A DNA stretch of 64,000 nucleotides from Naegleria gruberi (GCA_000004985.1 GG738905.1); one strand, 5' to 3'; numbered from the stretch's first letter, positions 4,889-64,000 are shown. Numbers and translations are program-made. The notes: generated from the sequence alone by a model not told the origin.

Positions 4889-5644
4889 ATGTGTTGGTCT
4901 CTCAGAGCTTCCTTGTTCTTTTCCATCCTAGGAGGATTGATGACTTTGGATCAGATTCGAAGAACACTTGCTATTCGAAAGGAGTGGAGAGCACGGAGTA
5001 TATCTCAAGTATTAATGTACCTGTCGTATACCTTGATGGAATTCCTACAATTTCTACAGTATTGGTTTGGAATTGAAGGAACGTGTGGCACCACTTCAAA
5101 TATTTTCCTGTCAATTGTGGCTCACTTTCTAATTTGGACTCAACCACTGGCACACAATTATTGGTGTTTAAGGAATACAGCGAAGGGAAGAAGTACTTTC
5201 AGATATGCTTTGTTTTGCTCCTTCTCCACCCTAATTCTGGCAAGTATCAGTTTGGCAATGGGTTATTTTCAAGTTGGTGGATTTGGTGTTGGAATTGAAA
5301 ATGACAATCTGGAAGGTGTTCCAGGAAATGTTTTGGGAATTGAAATTCAAAATGTGAATACCAAATTGTGTTCAATGCAAGGACCTAATCATTTATATTG
5401 GATGTTTCCCTATCATCCAATATGGGGACATGGCATTTCGTGGTTTACTTGGTTGATGGTTGCTGCATTTCCTCATTTCTTTAGATATTCAGTTAAGGAT
5501 AATGATTTCTTTGGAAAGAGTTGGGTGATGGGAAGTGTTGTCGTTGGTGGATGGTTAGTTGCCTTGGCAGTCACTTTGACAATTGGCAATTTCCATGAGA
5601 CACCTTCTTATTGGTGCCTTATTTCAGTTCCATGTTTGGTGTAG
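4889..5644 (+). CDS. hypothetical multi-pass membrane protein (251 aa)
   Basis: ORF with about 6 hydrophobic helices and a W/F/Y-rich composition typical of an integral membrane protein. Confidence 0.45.
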   Translation: MCWSLRASLFFSILGGLMTLDQIRRTLAIRKEWRARSISQVLMYLSYTLMEFLQFLQYWFGIEGTCGTTSNIFLSIVAHFLIWTQPLAHNYWCLRNTAKGRSTFRYALFCSFSTLILASISLAMGYFQVGGFGVGIENDNLEGVPGNVLGIEIQNVNTKLCSMQGPNHLYWMFPYHPIWGHGISWFTWLMVAAFPHFFRYSVKDNDFFGKSWVMGSVVVGGWLVALAVTLTIGNFHETPSYWCLISVPCLV

Positions 5645-5696: not shown

Positions 5697-5968
5697 TGTA
5701 TGTCAAAATGCCAAAGTCTTCATCTTCTGAATATGATTCAAAGAAAGTTGCCTAATTTTTGAGGGATGAGAATTGATGGATTGAAAGCCTCCATCTCATT
5801 GAGAATGAGCATTGACAATAATAGTGGAATCATTCAATGTCGATTTGAAACTATTTCAAATAAATTTCGAGTTGGAATCTGCTACTTTTTTTAAGTGTTT
5901 GGTGATAAACGTTGGGTCAATTTGTTACTTTCCATTTTGAGGAGTCATGCAGATTTCTTGAATGAAAG
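5697..5968 (+). repeat. repeat A copy 1 (about 270 bp), directly abutting the retroelement's left end
   Basis: about 93% identical to 10149-10418 (aaagtcttcatcttctgaatatgattcaaagaaagttgcc...gatttcttgaatgaaag). Confidence 0.85.
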
Positions 5969-8900
5969 TTGAAGTGAGTACCCCACTCACTAAGGTTTAT
6001 TGTAAACTACACACACCAATAAATATGAAAAATTTTTGTCTGAAAAAATTTCAACACAGCAAGATGTTAAAAGACAAGATTTACGCTCTTATTAAAGAAC
6101 ACTCCAGTGATGTTATGGCTAGTATGCCTCCAAACACCATCAAGATGGTATTGGATCTACTTGGCGAAAACCCTGAAGACAAAGAAAGATGGCTAGAAAT
6201 TGTTGAAGACGCAGGTGGTGCGTTATTCAACAACTTCTCAACAAAAGCAGAGGCCCAGGAATACTTTACCAAAGGTATTAAGAAGTTAGCAAAGAGTGGT
6301 AAAGTTGCTTCCACTAGAAGTAAGACTACCTCTTTGCAAGAGGCAAGCACTCCAAGTAACATGAATAAGACTTCTTCTTCATCTCAAATGGCTACCCCAA
6401 AGGTTTCTAGCGTTAGTCAGGTTAGAGAGTTCGTCCAAAAGAGAAGGATTGAAGAAACAGACGACAAGGAGTGGAAGAGAAGAGGTGTTATTCTTGACCC
6501 AGCTGATTTCCTTGAAAAGCCAGCTACTTGGAATCTCCCAAGTAGACAACAATGGGAAGAGATGAACCGCCAAATCAACATTTTAGTGGTCGGTAAACAG
6601 GTTGAAGAAAAGGTTAAGGAAACGTTTCCGCCATTGAGTACCAATAACCAAGCATTGAAAGCAGAGTACGACACCTTGAAAGAGGTCGCAGGAAGCGTCT
6701 ACGGTGCTGCATTGTTGAACAAGGATGAGTCAGTTGCAGACAAGTTGGAGGGTGCCATTGAATATATCAAGGAGAAAGCGGTACACCTCAAGCTCGTTTC
6801 CTTCGACAAGCATCTTGCGGAGAAGGTTCGTATCATTCGTTCAGATAAGACCTGGAGAGAACAGGCTGACCTTATTAAGGTCGCCTCCAAGTTGATGAAG
6901 GTAGAAAGTGAAGTGATTAAGAATGGAAACTTGCCAGTCATCAATAATATGACTAAAGCTGTTGAAAAGGCAAGAGATACCTATCCTGTAGCTTCCCACT
7001 GTTTCAAATGCGGAGAAGTTGGACACTTGGCAAAGAATTGCAATAAATCCACTTCCAAATACGTCTCGGTAAGTACTATTTTTCGATCCTCCAGATGCGG
7101 CAGAGATACGGGAGAGGAAACAAGCTGTTCACTCCATTTCGAATGCTTGGAAGGAGTGGAAGAGAAGAGGAGCGAAACCTTCGATAATAAGGCTCCTGAA
7201 AGAGGGTGTGAAAGTGCTTCCTTCAACAGGGTTCAAAAGATCAGTGGAGACAGTAAATTCAGCCAAGTTCTCAATAAGGGAACTACAGTGGTTGGAAAGG
7301 GAGATAAATTTGCTAAAGAAGATTGGTGCATTAGAAGCTTGTCAGAATGCGGAAGTAGTGGCCAAGTTCAGATTGGTACCAAAGGGAGAACAGTACAGAT
7401 TGATTGTAGACTTGAGACCCTTAAACAAATATTGCCTCATCCCCAAATTCAAGTACAACACATTGAAGAGATTCTTAGAGTTTATTCCAGAATCTGGAAC
7501 CATGTTCCTATCATCATTCGATTTGAAGTCTGGGTACCACCAGCTAAAAGTCCACAAGGACTCAAGAAAATTTTTTGCTATCAACTATTTTGGACAATTA
7601 TTACAGTTTACTGTGTTGCCCTTTGGCTGGAATGGATCACCATAGAACTTCACTTTGGTAATGAATCAAGCGGTAATTTTGATGGAATCACCACTCATGC
7701 GTCTTTCCAATTATTTGGACGATGTGCAAATAGTGAATGTAGTGGAAGAAACAATAGCCGTACAGAATGTAGAAATATGCAGGGAAGATGCAAACCAGCT
7801 TGGTTTAGTGTTAGAGAGAAGAAAGAGTGTAATGAAACCAATGACAGAATTAGTAGTGTTGGGGTCATGTGTGAATATTATAACGAAGACACTATCAATG
7901 ACAGAGGCTACGATAGTGAAGATTACGAATATGATAAAATCAGTACTCACGCGGATTCATTTAGGCAAAACAGTGTCGGTAAGGAAGATGAGTTCGATAA
8001 GCGGGACAGTGATTGCTTATTTGGAATGTTTTATCCCAGCAAGGGTGATGCTTGCTCCCATATTCGCCTTAATAGCAAAAACAGTAGTGAAGTACGGATG
8101 GAAAGCTTCGGTATTCGTAAGGGATGTCAGGGTCATTCACAACCTTCAATGGATTATTGCAAATATAAGGATGTGGAATGGAAAACACTTCCAGAGGCCA
8201 TCATTGGTCTATTACTTCTGGACAGATGCATCAGATTGGGGTTGGGGAGCATATTTCGAGGAGAAGGACTTGAAGATAGGTGGTCAATGGTCGGAACAAG
8301 AAAGAAAACTTCATATCCATATAAGAGAAATGTTAGCGGTGTTAAGAGCTTTGATGGAATGGAAGCATTTGTTCGAAGAGAGAAAGATCATTATTTATGT
8401 GGACAATTGGATTATCTTACACAACATTTTAAAGGGATGGGCAAAAAGCCCACTTATGAGAAGGTTAATTATGAGCTTCTGGAGAATTATATTCAGCCAC
8501 AATATAACTCTATTGTCTGTGGAATGGTTACCGTCGGAAGAGAATTATATGGCAGACGGGATCAGCAGGGGGATAATGAACGATCCCACGGATTGGGAGA
8601 TGACTATTCCAGCATTTCAAAGGATTCAGAAGGAACTTCTAGTGGAAATAGGATTCGACAGATTCGCTTCCCACGTAAGCTTCAAAGTCAAGCCTTACAT
8701 GGTAAGAGAAAGAAATTTCAGAGGAGAGAAAGCAGACGCCTTCTCTACATTATGGACAGAAGAGGTTGTAAATTTGTGTTGCGTCCCATTCAACTTAATA
8801 GGAAGAGTATTGAAACATTGCGAAGAATCAAAAGCTATAATGGTGTTGATTCATCCAGTATGGAAGAGAAGGTTTTGGTGGCCAATTCTAGAAAAGTATC

Positions 8901-9927
8901 GTATAAGGAGTGTATCGATGAATGGAAAGGACTTCTTTACAAAGTCCAATACAGGTCACGTAGAACCTTGCAAGAAATCTTGGCTATTAGAGGCAAGTCT
9001 GATAGATTGTCGAACTCGGAACTAATTAGAATTGCCAAGGAGGTCATTAGCTCTCACAGATACAAAGAGAGCACTGACAAGAACTACAGAAGATATTGGG
9101 TGCGCTTTATTAGATTTAACATTGAAAGAAAGGCTTGTTTTCCTCCTTCAGAAGATAATCTTATTGCTTTCCTGACGAACATGTTCCTTAAAACACCGTC
9201 AGGAAGCAACTGCAGTGCAGCATATGCTGCTATCATGGCATTTGCCAAGAAATTTAGTTTAGATCAGGGAATGCGAGGAGATAATATTCGAGAAGTTTTA
9301 AATGGAATGACTAATCTTTCAAGAGTGGCTAGTGAGAAGGAAAGAAATGCTTGGCAACTAGAATTTATTAGAAAGTGGGTGAGCATAGGTAGGAGAAGCG
9401 TGTCTGACAGAGAATTTGTATTATACACATCTATGATGATCATAGGTCTACGAACTATGTTGAGAGGAAGTGAACTTGGTGAACTAAAGACCGAAGATGT
9501 TCAATTTCTTCGCTTGGAGAATGGTAAAATGGCAGTCAAATTGAAATGTAGAAGAGTTAAATCTAGTCAGGGTAGAATGGGTAGAATTATGTGTATAGAG
9601 AGTACAGGAAATGATTTGTGCCCAGTATCTTGGTTGAATAGGTGGATGGTGTATAGAGATCAAGGTGATTACTTATTTGGTAATAGTAAGGCTTTGACTA
9701 CAATCGACATTTCGTGGATACTGAGATTTGTGGCGTCAGTTATTGGAGTAGATGGATGTTTCTCCTCTCATTCTTTAAGAATTGGAGGTGCTAATGAAGC
9801 AGCTCAAGCAGGTTTTTCTCTCGCTGCTATTCAAGCTTTAGGCAACTGGTCTTCAAATGCGGTTGACAAATATTTCAGATCTGAGTTTTTCTATAGTAGA
9901 AACGTATCAAAAGAATTGGGTTTCTAG
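5962..9927 (+). CDS. element frame-1 ORF: Gag-like N-terminus with CCHC zinc knuckle and tyrosine recombinase C-terminus; the middle 1.9 kb of this frame overlaps the RT/RH frame
   Basis: Zinc knuckle CFKCGEVGHLAKNC. C-terminal recombinase motifs RGSELGELKTEDV ... HSLRIGGANEAAQAGFSLAAIQALGNWSSNAVDKYF (R..HxLR..GNW..Y). Confidence 0.7.
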   Translation: MKVEVSTPLTKVYCKLHTPINMKNFCLKKFQHSKMLKDKIYALIKEHSSDVMASMPPNTIKMVLDLLGENPEDKERWLEIVEDAGGALFNNFSTKAEAQEYFTKGIKKLAKSGKVASTRSKTTSLQEASTPSNMNKTSSSSQMATPKVSSVSQVREFVQKRRIEETDDKEWKRRGVILDPADFLEKPATWNLPSRQQWEEMNRQINILVVGKQVEEKVKETFPPLSTNNQALKAEYDTLKEVAGSVYGAALLNKDESVADKLEGAIEYIKEKAVHLKLVSFDKHLAEKVRIIRSDKTWREQADLIKVASKLMKVESEVIKNGNLPVINNMTKAVEKARDTYPVASHCFKCGEVGHLAKNCNKSTSKYVSVSTIFRSSRCGRDTGEETSCSLHFECLEGVEEKRSETFDNKAPERGCESASFNRVQKISGDSKFSQVLNKGTTVVGKGDKFAKEDWCIRSLSECGSSGQVQIGTKGRTVQIDCRLETLKQILPHPQIQVQHIEEILRVYSRIWNHVPIIIRFEVWVPPAKSPQGLKKIFCYQLFWTIITVYCVALWLEWITIELHFGNESSGNFDGITTHASFQLFGRCANSECSGRNNSRTECRNMQGRCKPAWFSVREKKECNETNDRISSVGVMCEYYNEDTINDRGYDSEDYEYDKISTHADSFRQNSVGKEDEFDKRDSDCLFGMFYPSKGDACSHIRLNSKNSSEVRMESFGIRKGCQGHSQPSMDYCKYKDVEWKTLPEAIIGLLLLDRCIRLGLGSIFRGEGLEDRWSMVGTRKKTSYPYKRNVSGVKSFDGMEAFVRREKDHYLCGQLDYLTQHFKGMGKKPTYEKVNYELLENYIQPQYNSIVCGMVTVGRELYGRRDQQGDNERSHGLGDDYSSISKDSEGTSSGNRIRQIRFPRKLQSQALHGKRKKFQRRESRRLLYIMDRRGCKFVLRPIQLNRKSIETLRRIKSYNGVDSSSMEEKVLVANSRKVSYKECIDEWKGLLYKVQYRSRRTLQEILAIRGKSDRLSNSELIRIAKEVISSHRYKESTDKNYRRYWVRFIRFNIERKACFPPSEDNLIAFLTNMFLKTPSGSNCSAAYAAIMAFAKKFSLDQGMRGDNIREVLNGMTNLSRVASEKERNAWQLEFIRKWVSIGRRSVSDREFVLYTSMMIIGLRTMLRGSELGELKTEDVQFLRLENGKMAVKLKCRRVKSSQGRMGRIMCIESTGNDLCPVSWLNRWMVYRDQGDYLFGNSKALTTIDISWILRFVASVIGVDGCFSSHSLRIGGANEAAQAGFSLAAIQALGNWSSNAVDKYFRSEFFYSRNVSKELGF
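5969..6088 (+). repeat. 120-bp terminal direct repeat B1 of the DIRS-like element
   Basis: ttgaagtgagtaccccactcactaaggtttattgtaaactacacacaccaataaatatg...gatttacgctc is identical to 9973-10092. It contains the ATG and first ~40 codons of the element ORF. Confidence 0.9.
7208..9025 (+). CDS. element pol frame: reverse transcriptase + RNase H, interrupted by one in-frame TAG at 7646-7648 (degenerate copy or readthrough)
   Basis: RT motifs LVPKGEQYRLIVDLRPLNKY, FSSFDLKSGYHQ, VLPFGWNGSP and then YLDDVQIV after the stop. RNase H motifs TDASDWGWGAYF ... EKADAFS. Confidence 0.75.
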
Positions 9928-9972
9928 TAGGGGCTCATTGTTTTCGTATTTATTGGTGTGTAGTTGGATAAA

Positions 9973-10092
9973 TTGAAGTGAGTACCCCACTCACTAAGGT
10001 TTATTGTAAACTACACACACCAATAAATATGAAAAATTTTTGTCTGAAAAAATTTCAACACAGCAAGATGTTAAAAGACAAGATTTACGCTC
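9973..10092 (+). repeat. 120-bp direct repeat B2 (right end of the DIRS-like element), followed by the gap
   Basis: identical to 5969-6088; preceded at 9947-9965 by an inverted copy of an internal B segment. Confidence 0.9.
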
Positions 10093-10098
10093 CCACCA

Positions 10099-10148
10099 NN
10101 NNNNNNNNNNNNNNNNNNNNNNNNNNNNNNNNNNNNNNNNNNNNNNNN
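10099..10148. other. assembly gap (50 N)
   Basis: run of N. Confidence 1.
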
Positions 10149-10418
10149 AAAGTCTTCATCTTCTGAATATGATTCAAAGAAAGTTGCCTAATTTATGAGA
10201 ATGGATGAGAATGGATGGATTGAAAGCATTTCATCTCATTGAGAATGAGTATTGACAATAATAGTAGAATCATTCAATGTCGATTTGAAACTATTTCAAA
10301 TAAATTTCGTTATTGCAATCTGCCACATTTTTTAAGTGTTTGGTGACAAATGTTGGTCAGTTTGTTATTTTCCATTTTTGAGGTGTCACGCCGATTTCTT
10401 GAATGAAAGATTTCTCTT
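10149..10418 (+). repeat. repeat A copy 2, followed by unique non-element sequence
   Basis: about 93% identical to 5697-5968; ends at the same ...gaatgaaag boundary. Confidence 0.85.
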
Positions 10419-12292
10419 GTTGAACGTGATTTCCAGATATCAAGCTAAATGAAAATCCAAATGTTGTCGATATTCGTTGAAATTGAAAATTCATGAAGGA
10501 AAGCAACATTTCCATACAATTACAATTTGTTTCTTATCACCACTCGAGATGATCTTGTTTCATGTGATCTTTCGAATGAACTTGTGAAAGATCCTAATTA
10601 CAAAAGTGAAACTGTTCAATAAAAATTACGTTAAATGCAATGTTTTAAAGATGTTGATGAATATTTCATTTACAGTCGTCCTCAAAAGGTAATATACTGT
10701 CGAGTTCACTCATTCCCAATTACGAAAACATTTCTAATAATTCATTCAACATCCAATAGAGAATCTTCAAACTATGAAAACATGATCTCCACAATCTCCC
10801 CATTAAGTCGAATATTCCAAACCAATTAGTACTTTGAATTAAGGGCATTTAACCTATTTGGATGCTTATTTCCCCTTAATTGGACAATTGCACTACGGTA
10901 CTTCCTCAACAGTCCATTGAGATTTTTTAGATAAAATACCCAAAATTCAAGGCACCTTGAAAATAGTTTAAAGGAAGCCATGCATGTGAGATGATGAAGA
11001 AGGCATGTTTGCATGCGAAAGTTATGATGAAATCTAGTCATGTACATGTTGGTGCACATGACAGTATGTGAGAAGATTACATGTCTACTCTTTGATGTTG
11101 TAAGGGCATGTCTGAATGAAAATCCACACATTGGATGGAGATGTATGTGTGATGATAAGAGAGATACTCATCTTGATTAGATCTTTTACTTCTGCAGAGT
11201 TGGAAATAATTAAGAACTGTTTGTCAATAGTACTTACCAAGTTTTTGTTTTCCTTCATGTAATCATGGTGATGTAAATTGACATCATGTTTGTCAAGAAT
11301 GAACATGAATCAAGTGTTTAGCATGGAGTGGTTGTGCGTCACTACTCCATCAACATGTGAAATTATTTCACACCAACAAGAACAAAAGGTAATTTAGCAA
11401 CAAAACACATATATGGCAAAGCACACCCCCATTATCACCAAGCAAACTGTTCTTTCAAGATGTTCCATCACCTCACTTGAATCTCGGTTAGTGGTGCTAC
11501 CATTGAAAGTTGTTGATTTAAATCTTGTCCACCAAAAGATGAGAGGAAGTAGTGCGCACCTCATTGTTGCCTGGTTGGTGATGTTGTTCTTGTTGTTGAA
11601 TTGGTAATAACCAACTCAAACAAACAGCCTCAACAAGAGTGCATTTCATTGCTTTGCAATTTGCTTTCTTTTTTTCTAAAGTGTTGTTCATCATCATATC
11701 GCTTAATATTTATTTTAAGAGAGTAATCAGGTGGTGTGTGATTCTTGGACTAGTAGTGCGCAGAGTGATTATTAGTATTATTATTATTAATTATAATCAA
11801 TTATTTATATCTTTAAAATCATCAACACATCAAATATTTAATAAGGGTTTGAGTTGTTTCCCGCCAAAAATATAATTGACTCTTGAAAGGGGTAGGTACC
11901 TACCTGATCATTTATTTATAATATTATTTAATATTATAATATCTAAGATCTTGCTTCGAAACTCTATCAATTGATTTCTTTTAAATTTTTAAGAACTGTA
12001 GAATCATAAGAATTACCAAATAGAACGGACCAAAGCAAAAGAGAGTAAAATCTGCGATATATCTCAAATCACATCCAATTTAATCTTAAGAATCCGAGAT
12101 TCTATTTTTACGCCAAGTCGCTACAAGTACGGAAGTAAAGAGCCATAGAGTGAAATTTTTTTGCTATTAGATTGTGGACTCCATTGTGTTTTAGTGGTCG
12201 AGTGACAGTTTCAAAGTTATAAGAAACTCTAAAAAATTGAACACATCTCTCACTTTGAGGTTCCATTACTGAGAGAATAGTTTCGAATAATT

Positions 12293-14029
12293 ATGTCGGA
12301 AAGTGACGAATCTTCAAGGGAGGAATTGGCAACGAACAGTGTTTCGAATAGTGCTTCATCTGCTGTTGGTTATCTACATGTGAAAATGCCCCAAACAATT
12401 CTCTCAAAACGACAAAGACCAGGCATAAACTATTCAAATCAGCAACAACACAAAAATCCATCATCAGACCCATCACAATTTAACATTGTAGACGAAACAG
12501 ACAAGACAACACTCGATGTCAATAAGAAACTAAGAAAGAAGCGAAAGAAAAATCTACCTCCATTCCTTTCGAATACATGTCAACAACAAAAATCATCAAC
12601 ACCAAACAGCAGCAACGACAATTTAAATAATGGTAATAATAATGAAGAGGAAATTTTGGATTCAATCGAAGATATCGATCCTTCCATCAAGGTCTATGCA
12701 TTCGAAAAACCACTAATGACAAGCGCTACCAATTTTAAAGATAATTACTTCATACTGACACCTGTCGTGAACAATACTACATCTAGCACATCTAATAATG
12801 CTACTGTTAATTCTACAACTCAACATGTTTCCTCTCCATCAAGAAAATCTCAAAATCAAACTATCTCAACTAATCCGCACCGAAAAAATTCTAGACGAAA
12901 ATGTTCGTCTTCCTCCTCTTCAAACTCTTCCAATAACAATAATACTTCAGCAGCATTACTTTCGAATAATAATCTGTCTAGTACTACTCCACATGTTGTA
13001 AATTCGACAAGTGCTGTACATGTTCATAACGCTAGGAAATCGAGTCAACAACAACAACAAGTATCACATGTGATTATTGAGTATCCACAACAACATCAAC
13101 AACAACAACTTGCAAATCAACAACAGTGTGAATTAGGTGGATATGAGAATGGTAATACGGTGTTCAAGTTTGGTAATTCCTCATCTGTTCGTGAAGTTTC
13201 TGGCATGGATAAATTGACTGAGAATCCCCTTAATGATTTTTTACAACTACAATCCTCGTTGAATAGTAATAATGCGGGTAATAGTGGTGTGTCTTCGGCA
13301 GTTGCCTTGCTAGCATCAGTATTGGCCAATAACCAAGTTTCGAATAATGATTCGAATGGTTCATCTATGGCTTTTGATTACGATTCCATGATATCCATGT
13401 TGGATAAATTGCTTTGCAGGCAACCAAACATGTCATCTTCATCTGGTGCATCTTCATCTGATAACATGTTATACAACATGCACAATAATAACACAACTAG
13501 TCCAACAAGTTTAGTTTCAAATACTAATCCTTCAAATCTATTCATGACAAGTGGCAACAACATGCAACATGGTACCTCCTCCACAACATCCCAAAATCAA
13601 CTCAATAATTTATCCCTTCAACTCATTTCACAAATTGTTGAACTCTTAATTCAACGATATCAACAACAATTACAAAGCGTATTAAGCCAAAATCAAATAT
13701 CGAATTCTTCATCATTGAATAATTCTCCAATTTCCAATCCAACCTCCAATTTTGTACAACATTTATTTAATCAAGATCCTCAAGTTTCGAATATTTCGAC
13801 GAACCTATCTCAATATATAATGAATGCTCGATTTCCATCCAATGATGATTCGAATAATCAATTGCCACAAATGGTAGATCAGCAACAACTGAATCAGACA
13901 TCCATGCAACCAAATAATGTTTCGTCCTCCTCAAACGAAACAATTTCACAACAAGACATTCTAAGGTTTATTCTCCAAAATCAACATCTTCTCTTTCCAA
14001 ATTCGAATAATCAATCAAATAATCAATAA
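12293..14029 (+). CDS. hypothetical N/Q/S-rich low-complexity protein (578 aa) with basic KKLRKKRKK (NLS-like) stretch
   Basis: long ORF from an ATG in good context; strongly biased composition; TTCGAAT motif just upstream. Confidence 0.5.
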   Translation: MSESDESSREELATNSVSNSASSAVGYLHVKMPQTILSKRQRPGINYSNQQQHKNPSSDPSQFNIVDETDKTTLDVNKKLRKKRKKNLPPFLSNTCQQQKSSTPNSSNDNLNNGNNNEEEILDSIEDIDPSIKVYAFEKPLMTSATNFKDNYFILTPVVNNTTSSTSNNATVNSTTQHVSSPSRKSQNQTISTNPHRKNSRRKCSSSSSSNSSNNNNTSAALLSNNNLSSTTPHVVNSTSAVHVHNARKSSQQQQQVSHVIIEYPQQHQQQQLANQQQCELGGYENGNTVFKFGNSSSVREVSGMDKLTENPLNDFLQLQSSLNSNNAGNSGVSSAVALLASVLANNQVSNNDSNGSSMAFDYDSMISMLDKLLCRQPNMSSSSGASSSDNMLYNMHNNNTTSPTSLVSNTNPSNLFMTSGNNMQHGTSSTTSQNQLNNLSLQLISQIVELLIQRYQQQLQSVLSQNQISNSSSLNNSPISNPTSNFVQHLFNQDPQVSNISTNLSQYIMNARFPSNDDSNNQLPQMVDQQQLNQTSMQPNNVSSSSNETISQQDILRFILQNQHLLFPNSNNQSNNQ

Positions 14030-14161
14030 ATTGAAAGTTTGAAACTCTTCTCAAAACTTCAATAATTGTCATTGTAATCTTAATTCGCATCTTTACAATG
14101 ACAAGTTCACATTTCCAATCAGCGCTGATGAACTTGCCACAAAATTTACAATAAAAAAAAA

Positions 14162-15136
14162 ATGGCATCACTTGAGGAACAGCTTTTACTTCGTCGTCAA
14201 TTAATCTTCTCCAAAGTTACGGAAAAGATTGGACCTTCCCTTCCCAATGATGATAAAAAAGAGGCAAATTTAATGATTCGGGTGGCATGTTTCGTCTATA
14301 AAAAAGATGGAGCCGATCGACATTGGAAAGACCTGTTGCAAGCCTTGACTGATACCTCACATCCTAAGGAGAGAATTATTAAGAAAGATGATCACAGTGA
14401 TGGACATGAGATGATGCCTCACTTGTTGAATTTGAAAAGAGTTCAATTTGAATGTATTCAATTTGATCCGAATGATATTGGAAATGGTCAATTGATAACT
14501 AAAAAGATACATGTTGTGTTTTGTGGAGGAGGATTGGGTCCTGCACATGCTAGTCAATTGGGAGGAAAAGGAAAGAGGGAAATTATCAAGTTCTTGGAAC
14601 AGGGAGGAGGTTATATTGGATGTTGTGCTGGAGCTTATTTAGCATGTAGGTAATCTGTGATATTTATTGAATATTCTAATATTGAATGGAATGAAAAATA
14701 GGCACAGCGTATGATGCTTCTTTAAGTTTCTGGAATTATGGATTGATTGACTATCATATTCTTGATTTGTCAATGTGAAAACACTCCACAAGGTTCTGAT
14801 ATTCTCGTTTCAAACTTGAACGACTCTATTAGAAATGTCTATTACAGAAATGGACCTCTCTTTACACCAGTTACAGATGAAAAACTTCGTGAAAAGTATT
14901 CGGGAAACAAGATTGGACAATCGATGGTTTTACAAAATTTCAAACAAGAATTCACAAAGAAGAAGGTTGATTTGGAATCCAAATCAGTCATGATCGATAC
15001 TCCCTCCATAATTGCCAATCAATATGGTCAGGGAAGGGTTGTGGTGTTTAGTGCACACCCAGAAGCTTCAGATGAACAGGTTAGAAATGAATTCAAATGT
15101 GCCTTTGTTTGGGCTTCCTCTCAATTGATTTATTGA
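14162..15136 (+). CDS. class-I glutamine-amidotransferase-like / BPL_N-like fold protein; two exons (about 14162-14645 and 14793-15136)
   Basis: VVFCGGG ... GGGYIGCCAGAYLAC resembles the nucleophile-elbow region of GATase1-like domains. Two same-strand ORFs are separated by an AT-rich segment with candidate GTAGGT donor at 14646 and acceptor cacaag at 14792 that keep the frame. The family call is tentative. Confidence 0.45.
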
Positions 15137-54818: not shown

Positions 54819-55615
54819 GGTTGTGTTTTTTTGTTAAGTGAAAAAAGCCAAAGGTAAAACCTTTTGAACTAGTTGAAACCAGTTGTTGGATTCGAGGAAA
54901 GTCAGTCATTTTTTTCGTTTAAACCCCACTTGATAACCTCTTACTATTTCAAGCAATTATGCCCCTTGTCGCTTTTGACTTGTAGATAATATTGGTGTCA
55001 AGAATCGAAGTGGACACAAACATGTAAGAGGTAGGTGTGACTATGAGTCTCTTCTTTGAGAAAATCTAACGCAATGAATGCTATTTTGAACGTTACTTGG
55101 TGTTATCTGCTCTGAAATTCAAAATCCAAATTTGTAAACAATCATCAAAGATAATAAAATATTATTTTCATTGTCTCGGAGTAACTGAAAGTTGGTCTCA
55201 TGATTGGTGTGGTGCTTCCAAAGTAGTTGATTTGCATCATTGTATCATTTTCGAATCCATCAACATGTGCAACAAATTGATGCCAATGCCAGACCTATTG
55301 CATCTCGTGAATGAGTTGATGAAACATCTCATATTGAGTGTTATCAAAAGAACCTGTTCATCACCCAAAGTATTGGAAATATTCAAAGTAGCAAGAGGAA
55401 CCACTATTTGAAAATTCGTTTCATATTCAAAATTTCAAGAATATAAGCTGCGGATTAAACAATTGTGTATGATTTGCATTTTTTAAAATCAAAAGAACAT
55501 GTTTTGGCGGGAAGCTTGGTAATTGGTTTATTGGACTAAATTTCACGCAATAAATCATCTTCATCAGGAGATTCATCTAGCCACTGAGATTCATCTACCT
55601 TATTCCTTTTTTTTT

Positions 55616-55665
55616 NNNNNNNNNNNNNNNNNNNNNNNNNNNNNNNNNNNNNNNNNNNNNNNNNN
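55616..55665. other. assembly gap (50 N) flanked by two about 90%-identical copies of a ~125-bp segment (55441-55600 and 55666-55790)
   Basis: run of N; gcggattaa(a)caattgtgtatgatttgcatttttt...ggcgggaagctt...ggactaaatttcac(g/a)caataaatcatcttcatcaggagat occurs on both sides. Confidence 0.9.
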
Positions 55666-55906
55666 GCGGATTAACAATTGTGTATGATTTGCATTTTTTT
55701 AAAATCAAAAGAAAATGCTTTGGCGGGAAGCTTATTGGACTAAATTTCACACAATAAATCATCTTCATCAGGAGATTTACTTGTTCATTTGGAAATTCAT
55801 CGAGCCACATCAGTTCTGAGGTTGGAGACAACTTGGGAACCTGTGGTGCTGCAGTCTCTCTACCTTATTACTTTTTTTGTGTTTGGATTCTGTCATAAAA
55901 AGGTAA

Positions 55907-61062: not shown

Positions 61063-61099
61063 TCTTTTCTTTAATTCTGCTTCAATTTTAATAAATTGA

Positions 61100-61632
61100 G
61101 GGGTTTGGGTTTGGGGTTGGGGTTGGGGTTGGGTTGGGTTTGGGTTTGGGTTTGGGTTTGGGTTTGGGTTTGGGTTTGGGTTTGGGTTTGGGTTTGGGTT
61201 TGGGTTTGGGTTTGGGTTTGGGTTTGGGTTTGGGTTTGGGTTTGGGTTTGGGTTTGGGTTTGGGTTTGGGTTTGGGGTTTGGGTTTGGGTTTGGGTTTGG
61301 GTTTGGGTTTGGGTTTGGGTTTGGGTTTGGGTTTGGGTTTGGGTTTGGGTTTGGGTTTGGGTTTGGGTTTGGGTTTGGGTTTGGGTTTGGGTTTGGGTTT
61401 GGGTTTGGGTTTGGGTTTGGGTTTGGGTTTGGGTTTGGGTTTGGGTTTGGGTTTGGGTTTGGGTTTGGGTTTGGGTTTGGGTTTGGGTTTGGGTTTGGGT
61501 TTGGGTTTGGGTTTGGGTTTGGGTTTGGGTTTGGGTTTGGGTTTGGGTTTGGGTTTGGGTTTGGGTTTGGGTTTGGGTTTGGGTTTGGGTTTGGGTTTGG
61601 GTTTGGGTTTGGGTTTGGGTTTGGGTTTGGGT
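61100..61632 (+). repeat. telomere-like hexamer array (TTTGGG)n, about 88 perfect units, with degenerate TTGGGG/TTGGG units at the proximal (left) junction; continues into the gap
   Basis: directly visible: ...gagGGGTTTGGGTTTGGGGTTGGGGTTGGGGTTGGGTTGGGTTTGGG(TTTGGG)n; the G-rich strand reads 5'->3' toward the gap. Confidence 0.9.
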
Positions 61633-62890
61633 NNNNNNNNNNNNNNNNNNNNNNNNNNNNNNNNNNNNNNNNNNNNNNNNNNNNNNNNNNNNNNNNNNNN
61701 NNNNNNNNNNNNNNNNNNNNNNNNNNNNNNNNNNNNNNNNNNNNNNNNNNNNNNNNNNNNNNNNNNNNNNNNNNNNNNNNNNNNNNNNNNNNNNNNNNNN
61801 NNNNNNNNNNNNNNNNNNNNNNNNNNNNNNNNNNNNNNNNNNNNNNNNNNNNNNNNNNNNNNNNNNNNNNNNNNNNNNNNNNNNNNNNNNNNNNNNNNNN
61901 NNNNNNNNNNNNNNNNNNNNNNNNNNNNNNNNNNNNNNNNNNNNNNNNNNNNNNNNNNNNNNNNNNNNNNNNNNNNNNNNNNNNNNNNNNNNNNNNNNNN
62001 NNNNNNNNNNNNNNNNNNNNNNNNNNNNNNNNNNNNNNNNNNNNNNNNNNNNNNNNNNNNNNNNNNNNNNNNNNNNNNNNNNNNNNNNNNNNNNNNNNNN
62101 NNNNNNNNNNNNNNNNNNNNNNNNNNNNNNNNNNNNNNNNNNNNNNNNNNNNNNNNNNNNNNNNNNNNNNNNNNNNNNNNNNNNNNNNNNNNNNNNNNNN
62201 NNNNNNNNNNNNNNNNNNNNNNNNNNNNNNNNNNNNNNNNNNNNNNNNNNNNNNNNNNNNNNNNNNNNNNNNNNNNNNNNNNNNNNNNNNNNNNNNNNNN
62301 NNNNNNNNNNNNNNNNNNNNNNNNNNNNNNNNNNNNNNNNNNNNNNNNNNNNNNNNNNNNNNNNNNNNNNNNNNNNNNNNNNNNNNNNNNNNNNNNNNNN
62401 NNNNNNNNNNNNNNNNNNNNNNNNNNNNNNNNNNNNNNNNNNNNNNNNNNNNNNNNNNNNNNNNNNNNNNNNNNNNNNNNNNNNNNNNNNNNNNNNNNNN
62501 NNNNNNNNNNNNNNNNNNNNNNNNNNNNNNNNNNNNNNNNNNNNNNNNNNNNNNNNNNNNNNNNNNNNNNNNNNNNNNNNNNNNNNNNNNNNNNNNNNNN
62601 NNNNNNNNNNNNNNNNNNNNNNNNNNNNNNNNNNNNNNNNNNNNNNNNNNNNNNNNNNNNNNNNNNNNNNNNNNNNNNNNNNNNNNNNNNNNNNNNNNNN
62701 NNNNNNNNNNNNNNNNNNNNNNNNNNNNNNNNNNNNNNNNNNNNNNNNNNNNNNNNNNNNNNNNNNNNNNNNNNNNNNNNNNNNNNNNNNNNNNNNNNNN
62801 NNNNNNNNNNNNNNNNNNNNNNNNNNNNNNNNNNNNNNNNNNNNNNNNNNNNNNNNNNNNNNNNNNNNNNNNNNNNNNNNNNNNNNNNNN
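61633..62890. other. assembly gap (1258 N)
   Basis: run of N; ORF-track entries 61071-63953, 61088-62983, 61096-63012 and 61134-62948 are artefacts of translating N and hexamer repeats. Confidence 1.
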
Positions 62891-63953
62891 TTCTTCTAAC
62901 CGTATTATTCTTCTTAATTTTGTTGTTGTCTTCCTTATTGCCTTCTGAATCTGATTCATCAGCTTCAGGTGGTTCGTTCTCAATAACTATTTTTTTCCAA
63001 ATATTCTTTTGAACATGGCAATATACAGAATTTTTCTTTTCTTCACTAAAATCTGACAAACTTTCAGAACATGATTTCAGTTTCTCGAAATCTTGTTTTA
63101 AAGTTGCCAATGTTGTTTGCCATTCTGAACTAATCTGCATATTAGGATTTGTTTTCAATCCGTGCCATTTCTTTTTGAACTTGGAGGACATGTATAACGT
63201 ACGTGTAGGAAGCAAAATAGATTCTGCAAAGGAAGGTAAATTGAATTTACCTTTATGATTTGATTTTCTTTGACCTATCATTCTACCAAGGGAATGATAT
63301 GCTTCACATCCTTGATTCATATATTTTGTTAAGCTTCCATACTTTTCCAAAAGATCCGGTAAATGATACAAAATAATATTAATATAGTAAGCAAGTTGAT
63401 CATTTGGAAAGGCTTCTCTTAAAACCTTTTTAGTGAAACTCAAATACTCTTTCAATTCTTCTTTCTTAAAATTCAAATCCAATAGCCCTTGACTGGCTTC
63501 AAGGTAATGATATATTATGAATCTAAGTGATGACCACACTTTAAAATCATTATCATTAAATTGGGTATCCGATAATGATTCCATCATAATTGATTCATAA
63601 TTTAACAAAATCATATCAGCTTGATCTGCATTCATATAAGGAACTTCTAATTCAATTTTGTCATTTGTCGCTTGTAGAGCAAGTGTTGTGGCAGGTTGTT
63701 TCTTTCTAAATTGAAATTGAGACATTCCCTTCAATTTCTGAATTTTAGCTTCGAGGGATTTAATTCCTGACACTGTCATCTTAGAAATTTGAAGGGATAA
63801 CAAACAGCCAACAATTCTCAATTTTGCATGAAGTATGTCAATAACTACATTGGTGAATAAATTTGGAAATTTTTGAAAATAATGAGCTGGGGGAGCAAAA
63901 GCAAAATCCTTCTCCATTCTATCATCATATACACAGGGACAATATGGACACAC
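62891..63953 (-). CDS. N-terminal ~350 aa of a Cys-rich (CPYCPC) protein, possibly transposase-derived (TNP2/EnSpm-like or similar); C-terminus lost in the gap
   Basis: ORF begins MCPYCPCVYDDRMEKDF; segment IILYHLPDLLEKYGSLTKYMNQGCEAYHSLGRMI is reminiscent of conserved transposase-family blocks; family assignment uncertain. Confidence 0.35.
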
Positions 63954-64000
63954 AAAGTTTCGTTTGATGTCAGAAATCTTCCATAATGCACTAAATCCGA

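Follow-up and report, generated by a model that had tools for sequence, protein, structure and literature searches.

What kind of retroelement occupies positions 5969-10092 of the window, a 64,000-nucleotide stretch of a Naegleria gruberi NEG-M scaffold, and does it end where its second repeat ends? Of 10 ORFs tested in the neighbourhood of the element, 7 match N. gruberi proteins exactly. A sequence-only reading had described a DIRS-type retrotransposon with a tyrosine recombinase, bounded by identical 120-bp direct repeats, and had placed it near a PAT/Ngaro-like or LTR-like organisation. The family is not new for N. gruberi, given the DIRS-like elements (7 copies in 6 families) reported in 2011; that survey placed the families as DIRS1-like by TBLASTX scores, called the copies too damaged to place and left their ends undescribed (Piednoel et al. 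2011, PMC3266345). The mobile element is real, though ordinary, and falls in the already known DIRS/PAT group. We consider it likely that it is a methyltransferase (MT)-bearing, PAT-like member of the DIRS order with split direct repeats, whose spacer and right-terminal repeat B2 fall in an assembly gap. The coding features are as follows.

5962-9927, plus strand: giant ORF of 1321 codons, with a Gag-like region, a pol-overlapping stretch and the tyrosine recombinase (ORF call, Pfam)
6997-7044, plus strand: CCHC zinc knuckle of Gag, CFKCGEVGHLAKNC (Pfam PF00098, 24.4 bits, cut-off 20.8)
7073-9025, plus strand: pol frame, +1 to the giant ORF, with RT, RNase H and MT-like domains (RVT_1 and RT_RNaseH matches)
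7643-7645, plus strand: in-frame TAG in the RT domain, a nonsense codon at the conserved Tyr/Phe of LPFG..SP[Y/F]xFT
8582-8896, plus strand: DIRS-type MT-like domain, DRFAS...ADAF...CVPF...P.W..WWP (family HMM, alignment)
9031-9873, plus strand: tyrosine recombinase, with SAM-like N-domain at 9031-9252 and catalytic domain at 9430-9873 (Pfam)

Profile searches for RT, RNase H and phage integrase were run and all three matched, which bore out the assignment to tyrosine-recombinase retrotransposons of the DIRS order. On the 5962-9927 ORF, Pfam detected Phage_int_SAM_4 and Phage_integrase (37.4 bits, cut-off 27.1). The C-terminal recombinase, first proposed from the motif HSLRIGGA...GNWSS...KYF, was confirmed by the latter match and by alignment to Cre, in which HSLRIGGA...GNWSS...DKYF corresponds to Cre H289/R292/W315/Y324. 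Residues R168, K200, H270, R273, W296 and Y304 were invariant in an alignment with four relatives, and the recombinase is intact in the window element. Cre (PDB 1crx and others) was also the best sequence match of solved structure to the catalytic segment, in a local match only (~40 residues, E about 3e-4); the window enzyme differs from it in being part of a retroelement polyprotein-like ORF. The Pfam search gave no rve or other integrase match, in agreement with the claimed absence of a DDE integrase, and the combination of a DDE integrase or LTR features with an unsupported recombinase was not found, Phage_integrase lying above its cut-off. The same ORF carries zf-CCHC at aa 346-361 (motif CFKCGEVGHLAKNC at 7000-7041), as expected of the Gag-like region with a CCHC knuckle that had been described, and Pfam search of the window ORFs found no protease domain.

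In the pol frame, the part upstream of the TAG matched RVT_1 at 29.4 bits, and RT_RNaseH was found at 32.4 bits, with YLDD of RT at 7712 and TDAS of RNase H at 8222, indicating that RT and RNase H are both encoded, as had been read. The element therefore shares with the DIRS order a Ty3/Gypsy-like RT and RNase H and a tyrosine recombinase that replaces the DDE integrase. Window Pol is 54% identical to P0001, which itself matches RVT_1 at 71 bits, and 42% identical to the pol of Naegleria lovaniensis; homology searches otherwise gave metagenome proteins almost exclusively. The position of the TAG is F or Y in every aligned relative; in addition, the pol frame has no ATG ahead of the RT domain and a TAA at its start, so that this copy would probably be unable to make its own RT.

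The claim that no methyltransferase is recognisable did not hold. Pfam Dam gave no direct match on window Pol, and a profile HMM made from 8 relatives, using their Dam-positive MT region, scored 68 bits at Pol aa 504-608, shuffled controls reaching at most 6.7 bits. An MT-like domain at the C-terminus of pol is also found in the DIRS group sensu Szitenberg 2014 (DIRS1-like elements and PAT). The catalytic (D/N)PP(Y/F/W) motif is degenerate in the window domain (CVPF), and all MT domains of DIRS elements are regarded as inactive (Iyer et al., PMC4738411).

The whole of pol is nested within the 1321-codon Gag–recombinase frame, and the overlap of ~650 codons is conserved in five related elements. 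Across window pol the frame of the giant ORF contains 0 stops against about 31 expected, which was matched by 0 of 5000 synonymous shuffles; over the window element, L001, L002, L006 and the N. lovaniensis element L086, each with 0 stops in the pol-overlapping frame, the expected number is 22-41 (0/5000 shuffles). The ORF starts mechanically at ATG 5962, which belongs to host DNA 7 nt beyond the repeat and recurs at 10409 in the empty-site copy; ATG 6025 or ATG 6064, both in frame, is probably the true start. As these two, and the ATG that opens the annotated N. lovaniensis gene (the sole in-frame ATG found there), lie within A1, the earlier claim that the repeat holds the ORF start is right in essence, although not for the ATG at 5962. 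The repeats and flanks are as follows.

5713-5968, plus strand: host DNA left of the insertion, outside the element; 3' flank of the DUF5765 gene (4889-5644)
5969-6088, plus strand: A1, left-terminal copy of the split direct repeat, identical to 9973-10092, with in-frame ATGs 6025 and 6064
9928-9972, plus strand: B1, from the recombinase stop codon to A2; by analogy predicted to be repeated as the right-terminal B2, which is missing here
9941-10035, plus strand: imperfect 95-nt palindrome/hairpin over the B1|A2 junction (inverted repeats, DNA fold)
9973-10092, plus strand: A2, internal copy of the repeat, not the right end; identical to A1 and followed by CCACCA, not ATTTCTC
10093-10148, no strand: CCACCA, the probable start of the spacer, then the 50-N gap that would hide the remaining spacer and B2
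10149-10409, plus strand: diverged copy of the left flank, taken as the empty-site allele, running on into the true right flank (ATTTCTCTTG...)

The two repeats are 100% identical over 120 bp (123 nt if one mismatch is allowed), so that part of the sequence-only description stands; the right boundary at 10092 does not, since the second copy is the internal A2 and CCACCA is followed, six bases past the repeat, by a 50-N scaffold gap at 10099-10148. The left end could be fixed independently. The start of the next contig, 10149-10409, is a 90% copy of the 256-bp host flank 5713-5968, and the first base of A1 is the exact point at which this homology stops. In the Naegleria-like metagenome contigs L005 (95.6%) and L004 (83.5%), homology runs uninterrupted from the DUF5765 gene across 5712/5713. 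The right flank of the empty site begins with ATTTCTC instead of the CCACCA that follows A2. We read the insertion as hemizygous and the contig past the gap as its empty-site allele; as this contig would carry the uninterrupted allele of the site, the insertion is probably hemizygous and recent. The 10149-10409 copy may instead belong to a paralogous or misjoined contig, given that 10% divergence from 5713-5968 is high for alleles.

A complete and apparently intact relative in N. lovaniensis (PYSW02000016.1, gene C9374_002847, locus L086) has the layout A1 – ORFs – B1-A2 – ~0.5-kb spacer – B2 (A1, 7889-8075; B1, 11912-11946; A2, 11947-12133; spacer, 497 nt; B2, 12631-12665, equal to B1), with ~530 nt from A2 through B2. 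It shares with the window element this layout, a giant ORF (1332 codons) with pol nested in +1, the CCHC knuckle, the MT-like domain and the B1|A2 hairpin, and its A repeats are 4058 nt apart compared with 4004 nt in the window. The two are 42% identical in Pol and 39% in the recombinase; the A repeat is 187 nt against 120 nt, the repeat sequences being unrelated, and the L086 pol opens with ATG ATG and has no internal stop, unlike that of the window copy. C-rich sequence also follows A2 in L086 (CCTCCTCCCAATCCACC), where it is the start of the spacer, which is packed with the GGATGC motif. Because this complete relative shows a spacer and B2 past A2, the N. gruberi copy appears to lack ~0.5 kb, and spacer and B2 would fall in the gap. 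B1 is repeated as B2 also in L043, L031 and L015; that 9928-9972 recurs as B2 in N. gruberi is predicted from L086, at 42% Pol identity, and from these less closely related elements. Direct repeats of 53-482 nt, spaced 3.9-5.5 kb, were found in 11 metagenome relatives, in which B1/A2 lies downstream of the recombinase.

The B1|A2 junction is marked by the hairpin. Positions 9941-9965 are reverse-complementary both to 10011-10035 and to 6007-6031, and the DNA fold is -25.4 kcal/mol (z = -6.6, with 0 of 200 shuffles as good). The hairpin at the same junction in L086 has z = -6.1, with arm sequences unrelated to those of the window hairpin.

A PAT-like element is the best match for these features, judged on structure. 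Like the window element, Pat1-like PAT of the 'echinoderm form' (SpPat1; Szitenberg et al. 2014, PMC4157794) is an MT-bearing tyrosine-recombinase retrotransposon with a Gag zinc knuckle, co-oriented RT, MT and YR, and split direct repeats whose internal copy is placed unlike that of the nematode form; in the window the internal copy stands after the recombinase. The split repeats are ordered A1...B1-A2-B2 (PMC6681497, PMC4157794), with B1-A2-B2 adjacent in the published PAT/Ngaro scheme, whereas the Naegleria congener has a ~0.5-kb spacer between A2 and B2. The window element also differs from Pat1-like PAT in that Gag and recombinase share one unbroken frame that holds all of pol, and the likeness is one of structure. 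Of the earlier placement as PAT/Ngaro-like or LTR-like, only the PAT-like part is retained.

A canonical DIRS1-like element, with its right inverted terminal repeat (ITR) in the gap, the 120-bp repeat as the right internal complementary region (ICR) and 9941-9965 as the left ICR, is one alternative. DIRS-1 of Dictyostelium discoideum and the DIRS1-like elements (PMC3266345) have Gag, an RT-RNase H-MT pol and a recombinase, a recombinase ORF that overlaps pol over a long stretch and encodes the catalytic domain in its 3' part, outside the overlap, and, close to the 3' end, an internal mirror of the junction between the element ends, all as in the window. The long overlap and MT domain are typical of such elements, the 2011 TBLASTX scores placed the N. 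gruberi families among them, part of the left end is inversely complementary to 9941-9965, and with good ITRs a right ICR resembles the left end in direct orientation. However, the internal junction of the window element is a direct copy of the ends, not an inverse complement, and the complementarity of 6007-6031 to 9941-9965 begins 38 nt in from the left terminus and not at the terminal base. The assembled part of the window element (from which the right end is absent) holds no inverted copy of its left end, as had been claimed in calling the repeats direct, and neither does the complete L086, which lacks ITRs and ends with a direct copy of B1. Among metagenome relatives 4 kb or more in length, a long-range inverted repeat occurs in L076 only, against direct repeats in 11. 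We therefore regard a DIRS1-like structure as unlikely.

It is highly improbable that the element is LTR-like and truly bounded by its 120-bp repeats, with CCACCA as host flank and the 256-bp duplicate as an unrelated assembly artefact. The contig does stop 6 nt past the repeat, and L054, L013 and L006 show a single pair of direct repeats (111-129 nt) per contig. Yet the repeat opens with TTGAAG and closes with CGCTC in place of TG..CA ends, no tRNA-complementary primer site follows A1 after 6088 (TTATTAAAG), no purine tract precedes A2 before 9973 (GTTGGATAAA), the flanks show no target duplication (GAAAG versus CCACC) and no rve domain of a DDE integrase is present. Moreover, going by the empty-site copy, the right flank should read ATTTCTC and not CCACCA, and L086 runs ~530 nt beyond A2 to B2.

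A Ngaro/VIPER type, with split direct repeats and no methyltransferase, is barely credible: direct repeats downstream of the recombinase are indeed found in Ngaro (PMC4157794) and Pfam Dam did not match the window protein directly, but the MT-like domain at 8582-8896 rules Ngaro out, and the window has the order Gag-pol-YR with a 650-codon overlap, whereas Ngaro and VIPER usually lack ORF overlaps and the recombinase ORF of VIPER is listed before RT/RH (PMC6681497). Equally hard to credit is a mis-join at the contig end of a heterozygous Sanger assembly as the source of the second repeat or of the whole arrangement; A2 is only 6 nt from the contig end and unmerged diverged duplicates occur at two 50-N gaps of the N. 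gruberi assembly, but the independent N. lovaniensis assembly has a like A1/A2 arrangement at similar spacing and a matching hairpin upstream of A2, and the unique stretch 9928-9972 links the recombinase stop codon to A2 unbroken.

For the PAT-like element, the family suggests a route of mobilisation: its RNA would be reverse-transcribed, the internal B1|A2 junction with its conserved hairpin may act as template or splint to circularise the cDNA by joining its ends, B2 and A1, and the recombinase would integrate the circle without target-site duplication. In DIRS-1, retrotransposition needs the internal junction region (PMC7192593).

With slightly less than even confidence, we propose that Naegleria (Heterolobosea) harbours an MT-bearing lineage of its own, with spacer-interrupted repeats, a junction hairpin and a nested pol, which would still be mobile in N. 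gruberi, since the insertion looks hemizygous and its repeats are identical. If so, no PAT-type element in Discoba would have been structurally resolved before, and the DIRS1-like assignment made for N. gruberi in 2011 would be revised. In any case the element is a tyrosine-recombinase retroelement of an excavate whose structure can be interpreted; our general view of the DIRS order is unaltered by it. The N. gruberi and N. lovaniensis pair offers two conserved features open to experiment, the end-junction hairpin and the ~650-codon dual-coding region. An annotation should carry the element on into the gap and list it as PAT-like within the DIRS order, not as LTR-like. The surrounding 256-bp duplication stems from the assembly or from haplotypes and is not part of the element's biology; a second 50-N gap, at 55616-55665, is likewise flanked by a duplicate, 86% identical.

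The element starting at 5969, a DIRS-order tyrosine-recombinase retrotransposon, is genuine and of a kind already reported in N. gruberi, and our analysis adds modest refinements: repeats split by a spacer, a conserved junction hairpin, a fully nested pol and a probable hemizygous insertion. In Pfam searches, the 1321-codon Gag–recombinase ORF (5962–9927, the giant ORF) matched zf-CCHC at aa 346–361, a Phage_int_SAM_4-like N-domain and Phage_integrase (37.4 bits versus a cut-off of 27.1), and the +1 frame at 7073–9025 (pol) matched RVT_1 and RT_RNaseH, while neither a DDE-type integrase nor a protease was found in the element's ORFs. The recombinase motif HSLRIGGA...GNWSS...DKYF was aligned with H289, R292, W315 and Y324 of Cre, and R, K, H-x-x-R, W and Y were invariant in the alignment with four relatives; the active site appears intact. 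Since these domains and the motif are accompanied by an exact repeat (A1, 5969–6088, identical to A2, 9973–10092), the coding content and the 120-bp repeat are real. The sequence-only reading was thus confirmed in its Gag-like CCHC region, RT, RNase H and C-terminal tyrosine recombinase, in the motif (as HSLRIGGA...GNWSS...KYF), in the lack of a DDE integrase and in the identity of the direct repeats. The giant ORF had no protein-database match at E ≤ 1e-5, where low-complexity words probably saturated the candidate list.

The same reading had taken the two repeats as the boundaries of the element. A 50-N scaffold gap (10099–10148) begins six bases after A2, and the contig beyond it opens with 10149–10409, a 90% copy of the 256 bp directly before the element (5713–5968). 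The similarity stops at ...GAATGAAAG in both, after which the left copy passes into the repeat at its first base (TTGAAGTGAG) and the right copy runs into ATTTCTCTTG. The stretch 5713–5968 can be assigned to the host, because two Naegleria-like metagenome contigs with the upstream DUF5765 gene (L005 and L004) align unbroken across 5712/5713 (95.6% to position 5840, 83.5% to position 5758; both end before the insertion site). On the simplest reading of these alignments, the right contig represents the uninserted allele, and the insertion would probably be hemizygous. Naegleria has been characterised as mainly a heterozygous diploid (PMC9928731). A second 50-N gap (55616–55665) is also flanked by a duplicate (86%, 55450–55573 vs 55666–55777), and it is suggested that the 50-N gaps of this assembly join contigs with unmerged, diverged and probably allelic overlaps. 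Alternatively, 10149–10409 may come from a paralogous contig, in favour of which a divergence of 10% is high for alleles. The DUF5765 membrane-protein gene adjoining the insertion (4889–5644; EFC38710, 251 aa) clusters at at least 90% identity with EFC37006 (287 aa) of another N. gruberi scaffold; the latter could be a paralogue or lie on an alternative haplotype scaffold, and may help to explain where the duplicate comes from.

If the right contig is the empty allele, the left end is fixed at 5969 independently of the repeat, and the right flank is predicted to be ATTTCTC. The sequence actually following A2 is CCACCA; therefore A2 would not be the right terminus and the element would continue into the gap. 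The claim that the 120-bp repeats bound it is not supported. Comparison with the empty site revealed no target-site duplication at the left junction. CCCACCA (7 nt after A2) had no other occurrence upstream in the element, which was first counted against split repeats; this objection was overturned by the spacer between A2 and the right-terminal repeat (B2) in relatives.

A complete element of the same plan was found by profile search through the annotated Naegleria lovaniensis protein C9374_002847, whose locus (L086, PYSW02000016.1) sits within a 689-kb contig, in a part free of gaps.

Features of the N. lovaniensis element (L086 positions)
7889–8075: A1, left repeat copy, 187 nt
7905–11900: giant ORF, 1332 codons, with CCHC
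8974–11001: pol, nested, +1 frame
11912–11946: B1, directly before A2
11947–12133: A2, 99% to A1; spacing 4058 nt versus 4004 nt in the window
12134–12630: spacer, 497 nt
12631–12665: B2, identical to B1

The spacer of L086 starts C-rich (CCTCCTCCCAATCCACC), resembling the CCACCA after A2 of the window, and the 9 nt ACAAATTCG form the first bases of A (7889–7897) and recur directly after B2 (12666–12674). Among the metagenome loci, eleven had direct repeats (53–482 nt, spaced 3.9–5.5 kb), four (L043, L041, L031 and L015) had the order A1 ... B1-A2-spacer-B2 with spacers of 213–664 nt, and only L076 of those of at least 4 kb had a long-range inverted repeat; B1 and A2 were downstream of the recombinase in all metagenome relatives examined. 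The metagenome scan with the Pol profile yielded relatives of 23–31% identity only, which are informative on the architecture and not on the missing end, and the closest relatives (L001–L003, 53–54% identity) are short contigs that lack termini and change frame in places when compared with the window. Split direct repeats in the order A1 ... B1, A2, B2 have been described for PAT-like elements, Ngaro and VIPER (PMC6681497, PMC4157794); what these sequences add to that order is the spacer separating A2 and B2. By analogy, the N. gruberi copy would be missing about 0.5 kb, comprising the spacer and B2, and its end is predicted as a spacer from CCACCA, followed by a direct copy of ~9928–9972 (B1 at 9928–9972) ending ...GTTGGATAAA and joined to ATTTCTCTTG.

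Some further observations were made around these ends. In L086, B2 and the 9 nt behind it extend into the 3' end of a neighbouring annotated gene (12661–14391, minus strand). The L086 spacer has, at 12205–12440, eleven GGATGC(C) copies in ~235 nt, a stretch in which an 81-nt unit recurs with a spacing of 136 nt; only four copies lie elsewhere in the 20-kb locus. The copies are candidates for promoter repeats or protein-binding sites, and the equivalent N. gruberi region falls in the gap. L041, L043 and L031 carry an extra partner-repeat copy (B-A) after B2 or before A1, a pattern to be expected if elements had inserted, in tandem or nested, into their own junction, or if the assembly ran through circular forms.

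The B1|A2 junction of the window lies in an imperfect palindrome (9941–10035), where A2 positions 39–63 pair with the final ~32 nt of B1 and a short hairpin (GTGAGT-ACCCC-ACTCAC) sits inside. A DNA fold of the palindrome reached −25.4 kcal/mol (z = −6.6, 0 of 200 shuffles as good), and the hairpin across B1|A2 of N. lovaniensis reached −23.2 kcal/mol (z = −6.1). Since the arms of the two hairpins were unalignable by MAFFT, the structure appears to be maintained without its sequence. The same hairpin would be expected at any B2-to-A1 joint, in a circle or a tandem, because B2 equals B1 and A1 equals A2. As judged from the family, transcription would begin within A1 and continue through A2, the Pol protein would perform reverse transcription, and the internal B1|A2 junction could act as a template or splint joining the cDNA ends, a role that experiments have demonstrated for the internal complementary region of DIRS-1 (PMC7192593). 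The joined cDNA would be a circle with the B2|A1 junction as its recombination site, and the recombinase would integrate it at a target that has a short core in common with it; the 9-bp ACAAATTCG, present at either end of the L086 element, may be such a core.

The repeat had also been said to contain the ORF start. This does not hold for ATG 5962, which lies 7 nt outside the repeat, immediately behind a TGA in the same frame. Identical bases are present at 10401–10409 of the duplicate, and this ATG belongs to host DNA. Two further ATGs of the giant-ORF frame (6025 and 6064) lie within the repeat, and the annotated N. lovaniensis gene begins within A1 at ATG 8001, the sole in-frame ATG found in L086 7905–8200, so that an ORF start inside the repeat survives. 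The pol frame of the window has an in-frame TAG inside RT (7643–7645), where all relatives have F or Y (LPFG..SP[Y/F]xFT), as well as a TAA at 7070–7072, and it lacks an ATG ahead of the RT domain; at the corresponding pol start (window 7034–7072), N. lovaniensis reads ATG ATG and stays open, whereas N. gruberi reads ACT TGG and then the TAA. With three lesions in pol and zero in the 1321-codon frame, the window copy is probably unable to make its own RT. A programmed +1 frameshift from the Gag frame into pol was considered and is inseparable from simple decay of this copy; pol without an ATG would reflect either such a shift or, more likely, a defective copy mobilised in trans.

The Gag–recombinase frame is open through all 650 pol codons. 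The stops expected in this overlapping frame were estimated from 5000 synonymous shuffles per element.

Stops in the frame overlapping pol
Window: 0 stops, ~31 expected, 0/5000 shuffles as good
L001 (54% Pol identity): 0 stops, ~32 expected, 0/5000 shuffles as good
L002 (53% Pol identity): 0 stops, ~24 expected, 0/5000 shuffles as good
L006 (28% Pol identity): 0 stops, ~22 expected, 0/5000 shuffles as good
N. lovaniensis L086 (42% Pol identity): 0 stops, ~41 expected, 0/5000 shuffles as good

The remaining alternative frame contained 48–84 stops across these elements, and three host genes showed no comparable depletion of stops. The overlap region is poorly conserved: against N. lovaniensis, only aa 192–587 (22.6%) and aa 840–1321 (39%) align. 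In DIRS1-like elements the recombinase ORF overlaps pol at length, its catalytic domain being encoded by the 3' portion outside the overlap; Ngaro and VIPER seldom show so long an overlap (PMC3266345). Compared with the window, L001 (~1077, ~2690) and L002 (~2060, ~3200) change frame at differing places and still keep both overlapping frames stop-free; indels seem to be tolerated in this region without truncation.

The sequence-only reading had recognised no methyltransferase (MT) domain. Pfam Dam (PF05869) had no direct match to the window Pol, but it matched the equivalent region of relatives (e.g. proteins P0003 and P0006, 40.3 and 30.1 bits), and a family HMM built solely from the Dam-matching region of eight relatives scored 68 bits on Pol residues 504–608 (window 8582–8896) versus at most 6.7 bits for a thousand shuffles, which overturns that statement. 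The (D/N)PP(Y/F/W) motif is CVPF in this domain, and all DIRS MT domains are regarded as catalytically dead by Iyer et al. (PMC4738411). Under the structure-based classification of Szitenberg et al. 2014 (PMC4157794), the element falls into the DIRS group by virtue of its MT domain. Its direct, not inverted, repeats are shared with PAT, and the Gag zinc knuckle and co-oriented recombinase match the Pat1-like type. Its internal repeats follow the recombinase, whereas the nematode form has them between MT and recombinase. DIRS1-like status fails on inverted terminal repeats, with the element's own right end in the gap. Of the proposed PAT/Ngaro-like or LTR-like organisation, the closeness to PAT stands; Ngaro is rejected on the MT domain and the ORF overlap that the element has, and an LTR-like form is discarded, no TG..CA, PBS, PPT, TSD or DDE integrase being found in the element. 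The call of a DIRS-type element closer to PAT than to DIRS-1 was right in outline, judged on structure. Such elements are not new to this organism: Piednoel et al. 2011 reported seven DIRS-like copies in six N. gruberi families, assigned as DIRS1-like from TBLASTX scores alone with frameshifts too many for phylogeny; their termini were undescribed, and the paper's supplements give neither coordinates nor reference sequences for N. gruberi (PMC3266345). In N. lovaniensis, 89 DIRS hits were reported by RepeatMasker.

Regarding the host context, 7 of 10 long window ORFs tested were exact matches to annotated N. gruberi NEG-M proteins (EFC38710 to EFC38785), carried by a scaffold of 290,827 bp. 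The G+C content is ~34% in the window and ~40% in the element, and the window has four N-runs. Exact look-ups found no record of the products of 12293–14029, 5962–9927, 6025–9927 and 4889–5644, nor of EFC37006. The ORF at 12293–14029 (578 aa, extremely N-, Q- and S-rich, no Pfam match) probably differs from the annotated gene model, since its exact product is not on record. Long 'ORFs' across 61071–63953 are N-run artefacts. At 61101–61632, 89 GGGTTT copies adjoin a 1258-N gap (61633–62890), on the far side of which lies very AT-rich DNA (G+C of 17.6% at 62001–64000); this array could be telomere-like or subtelomeric.
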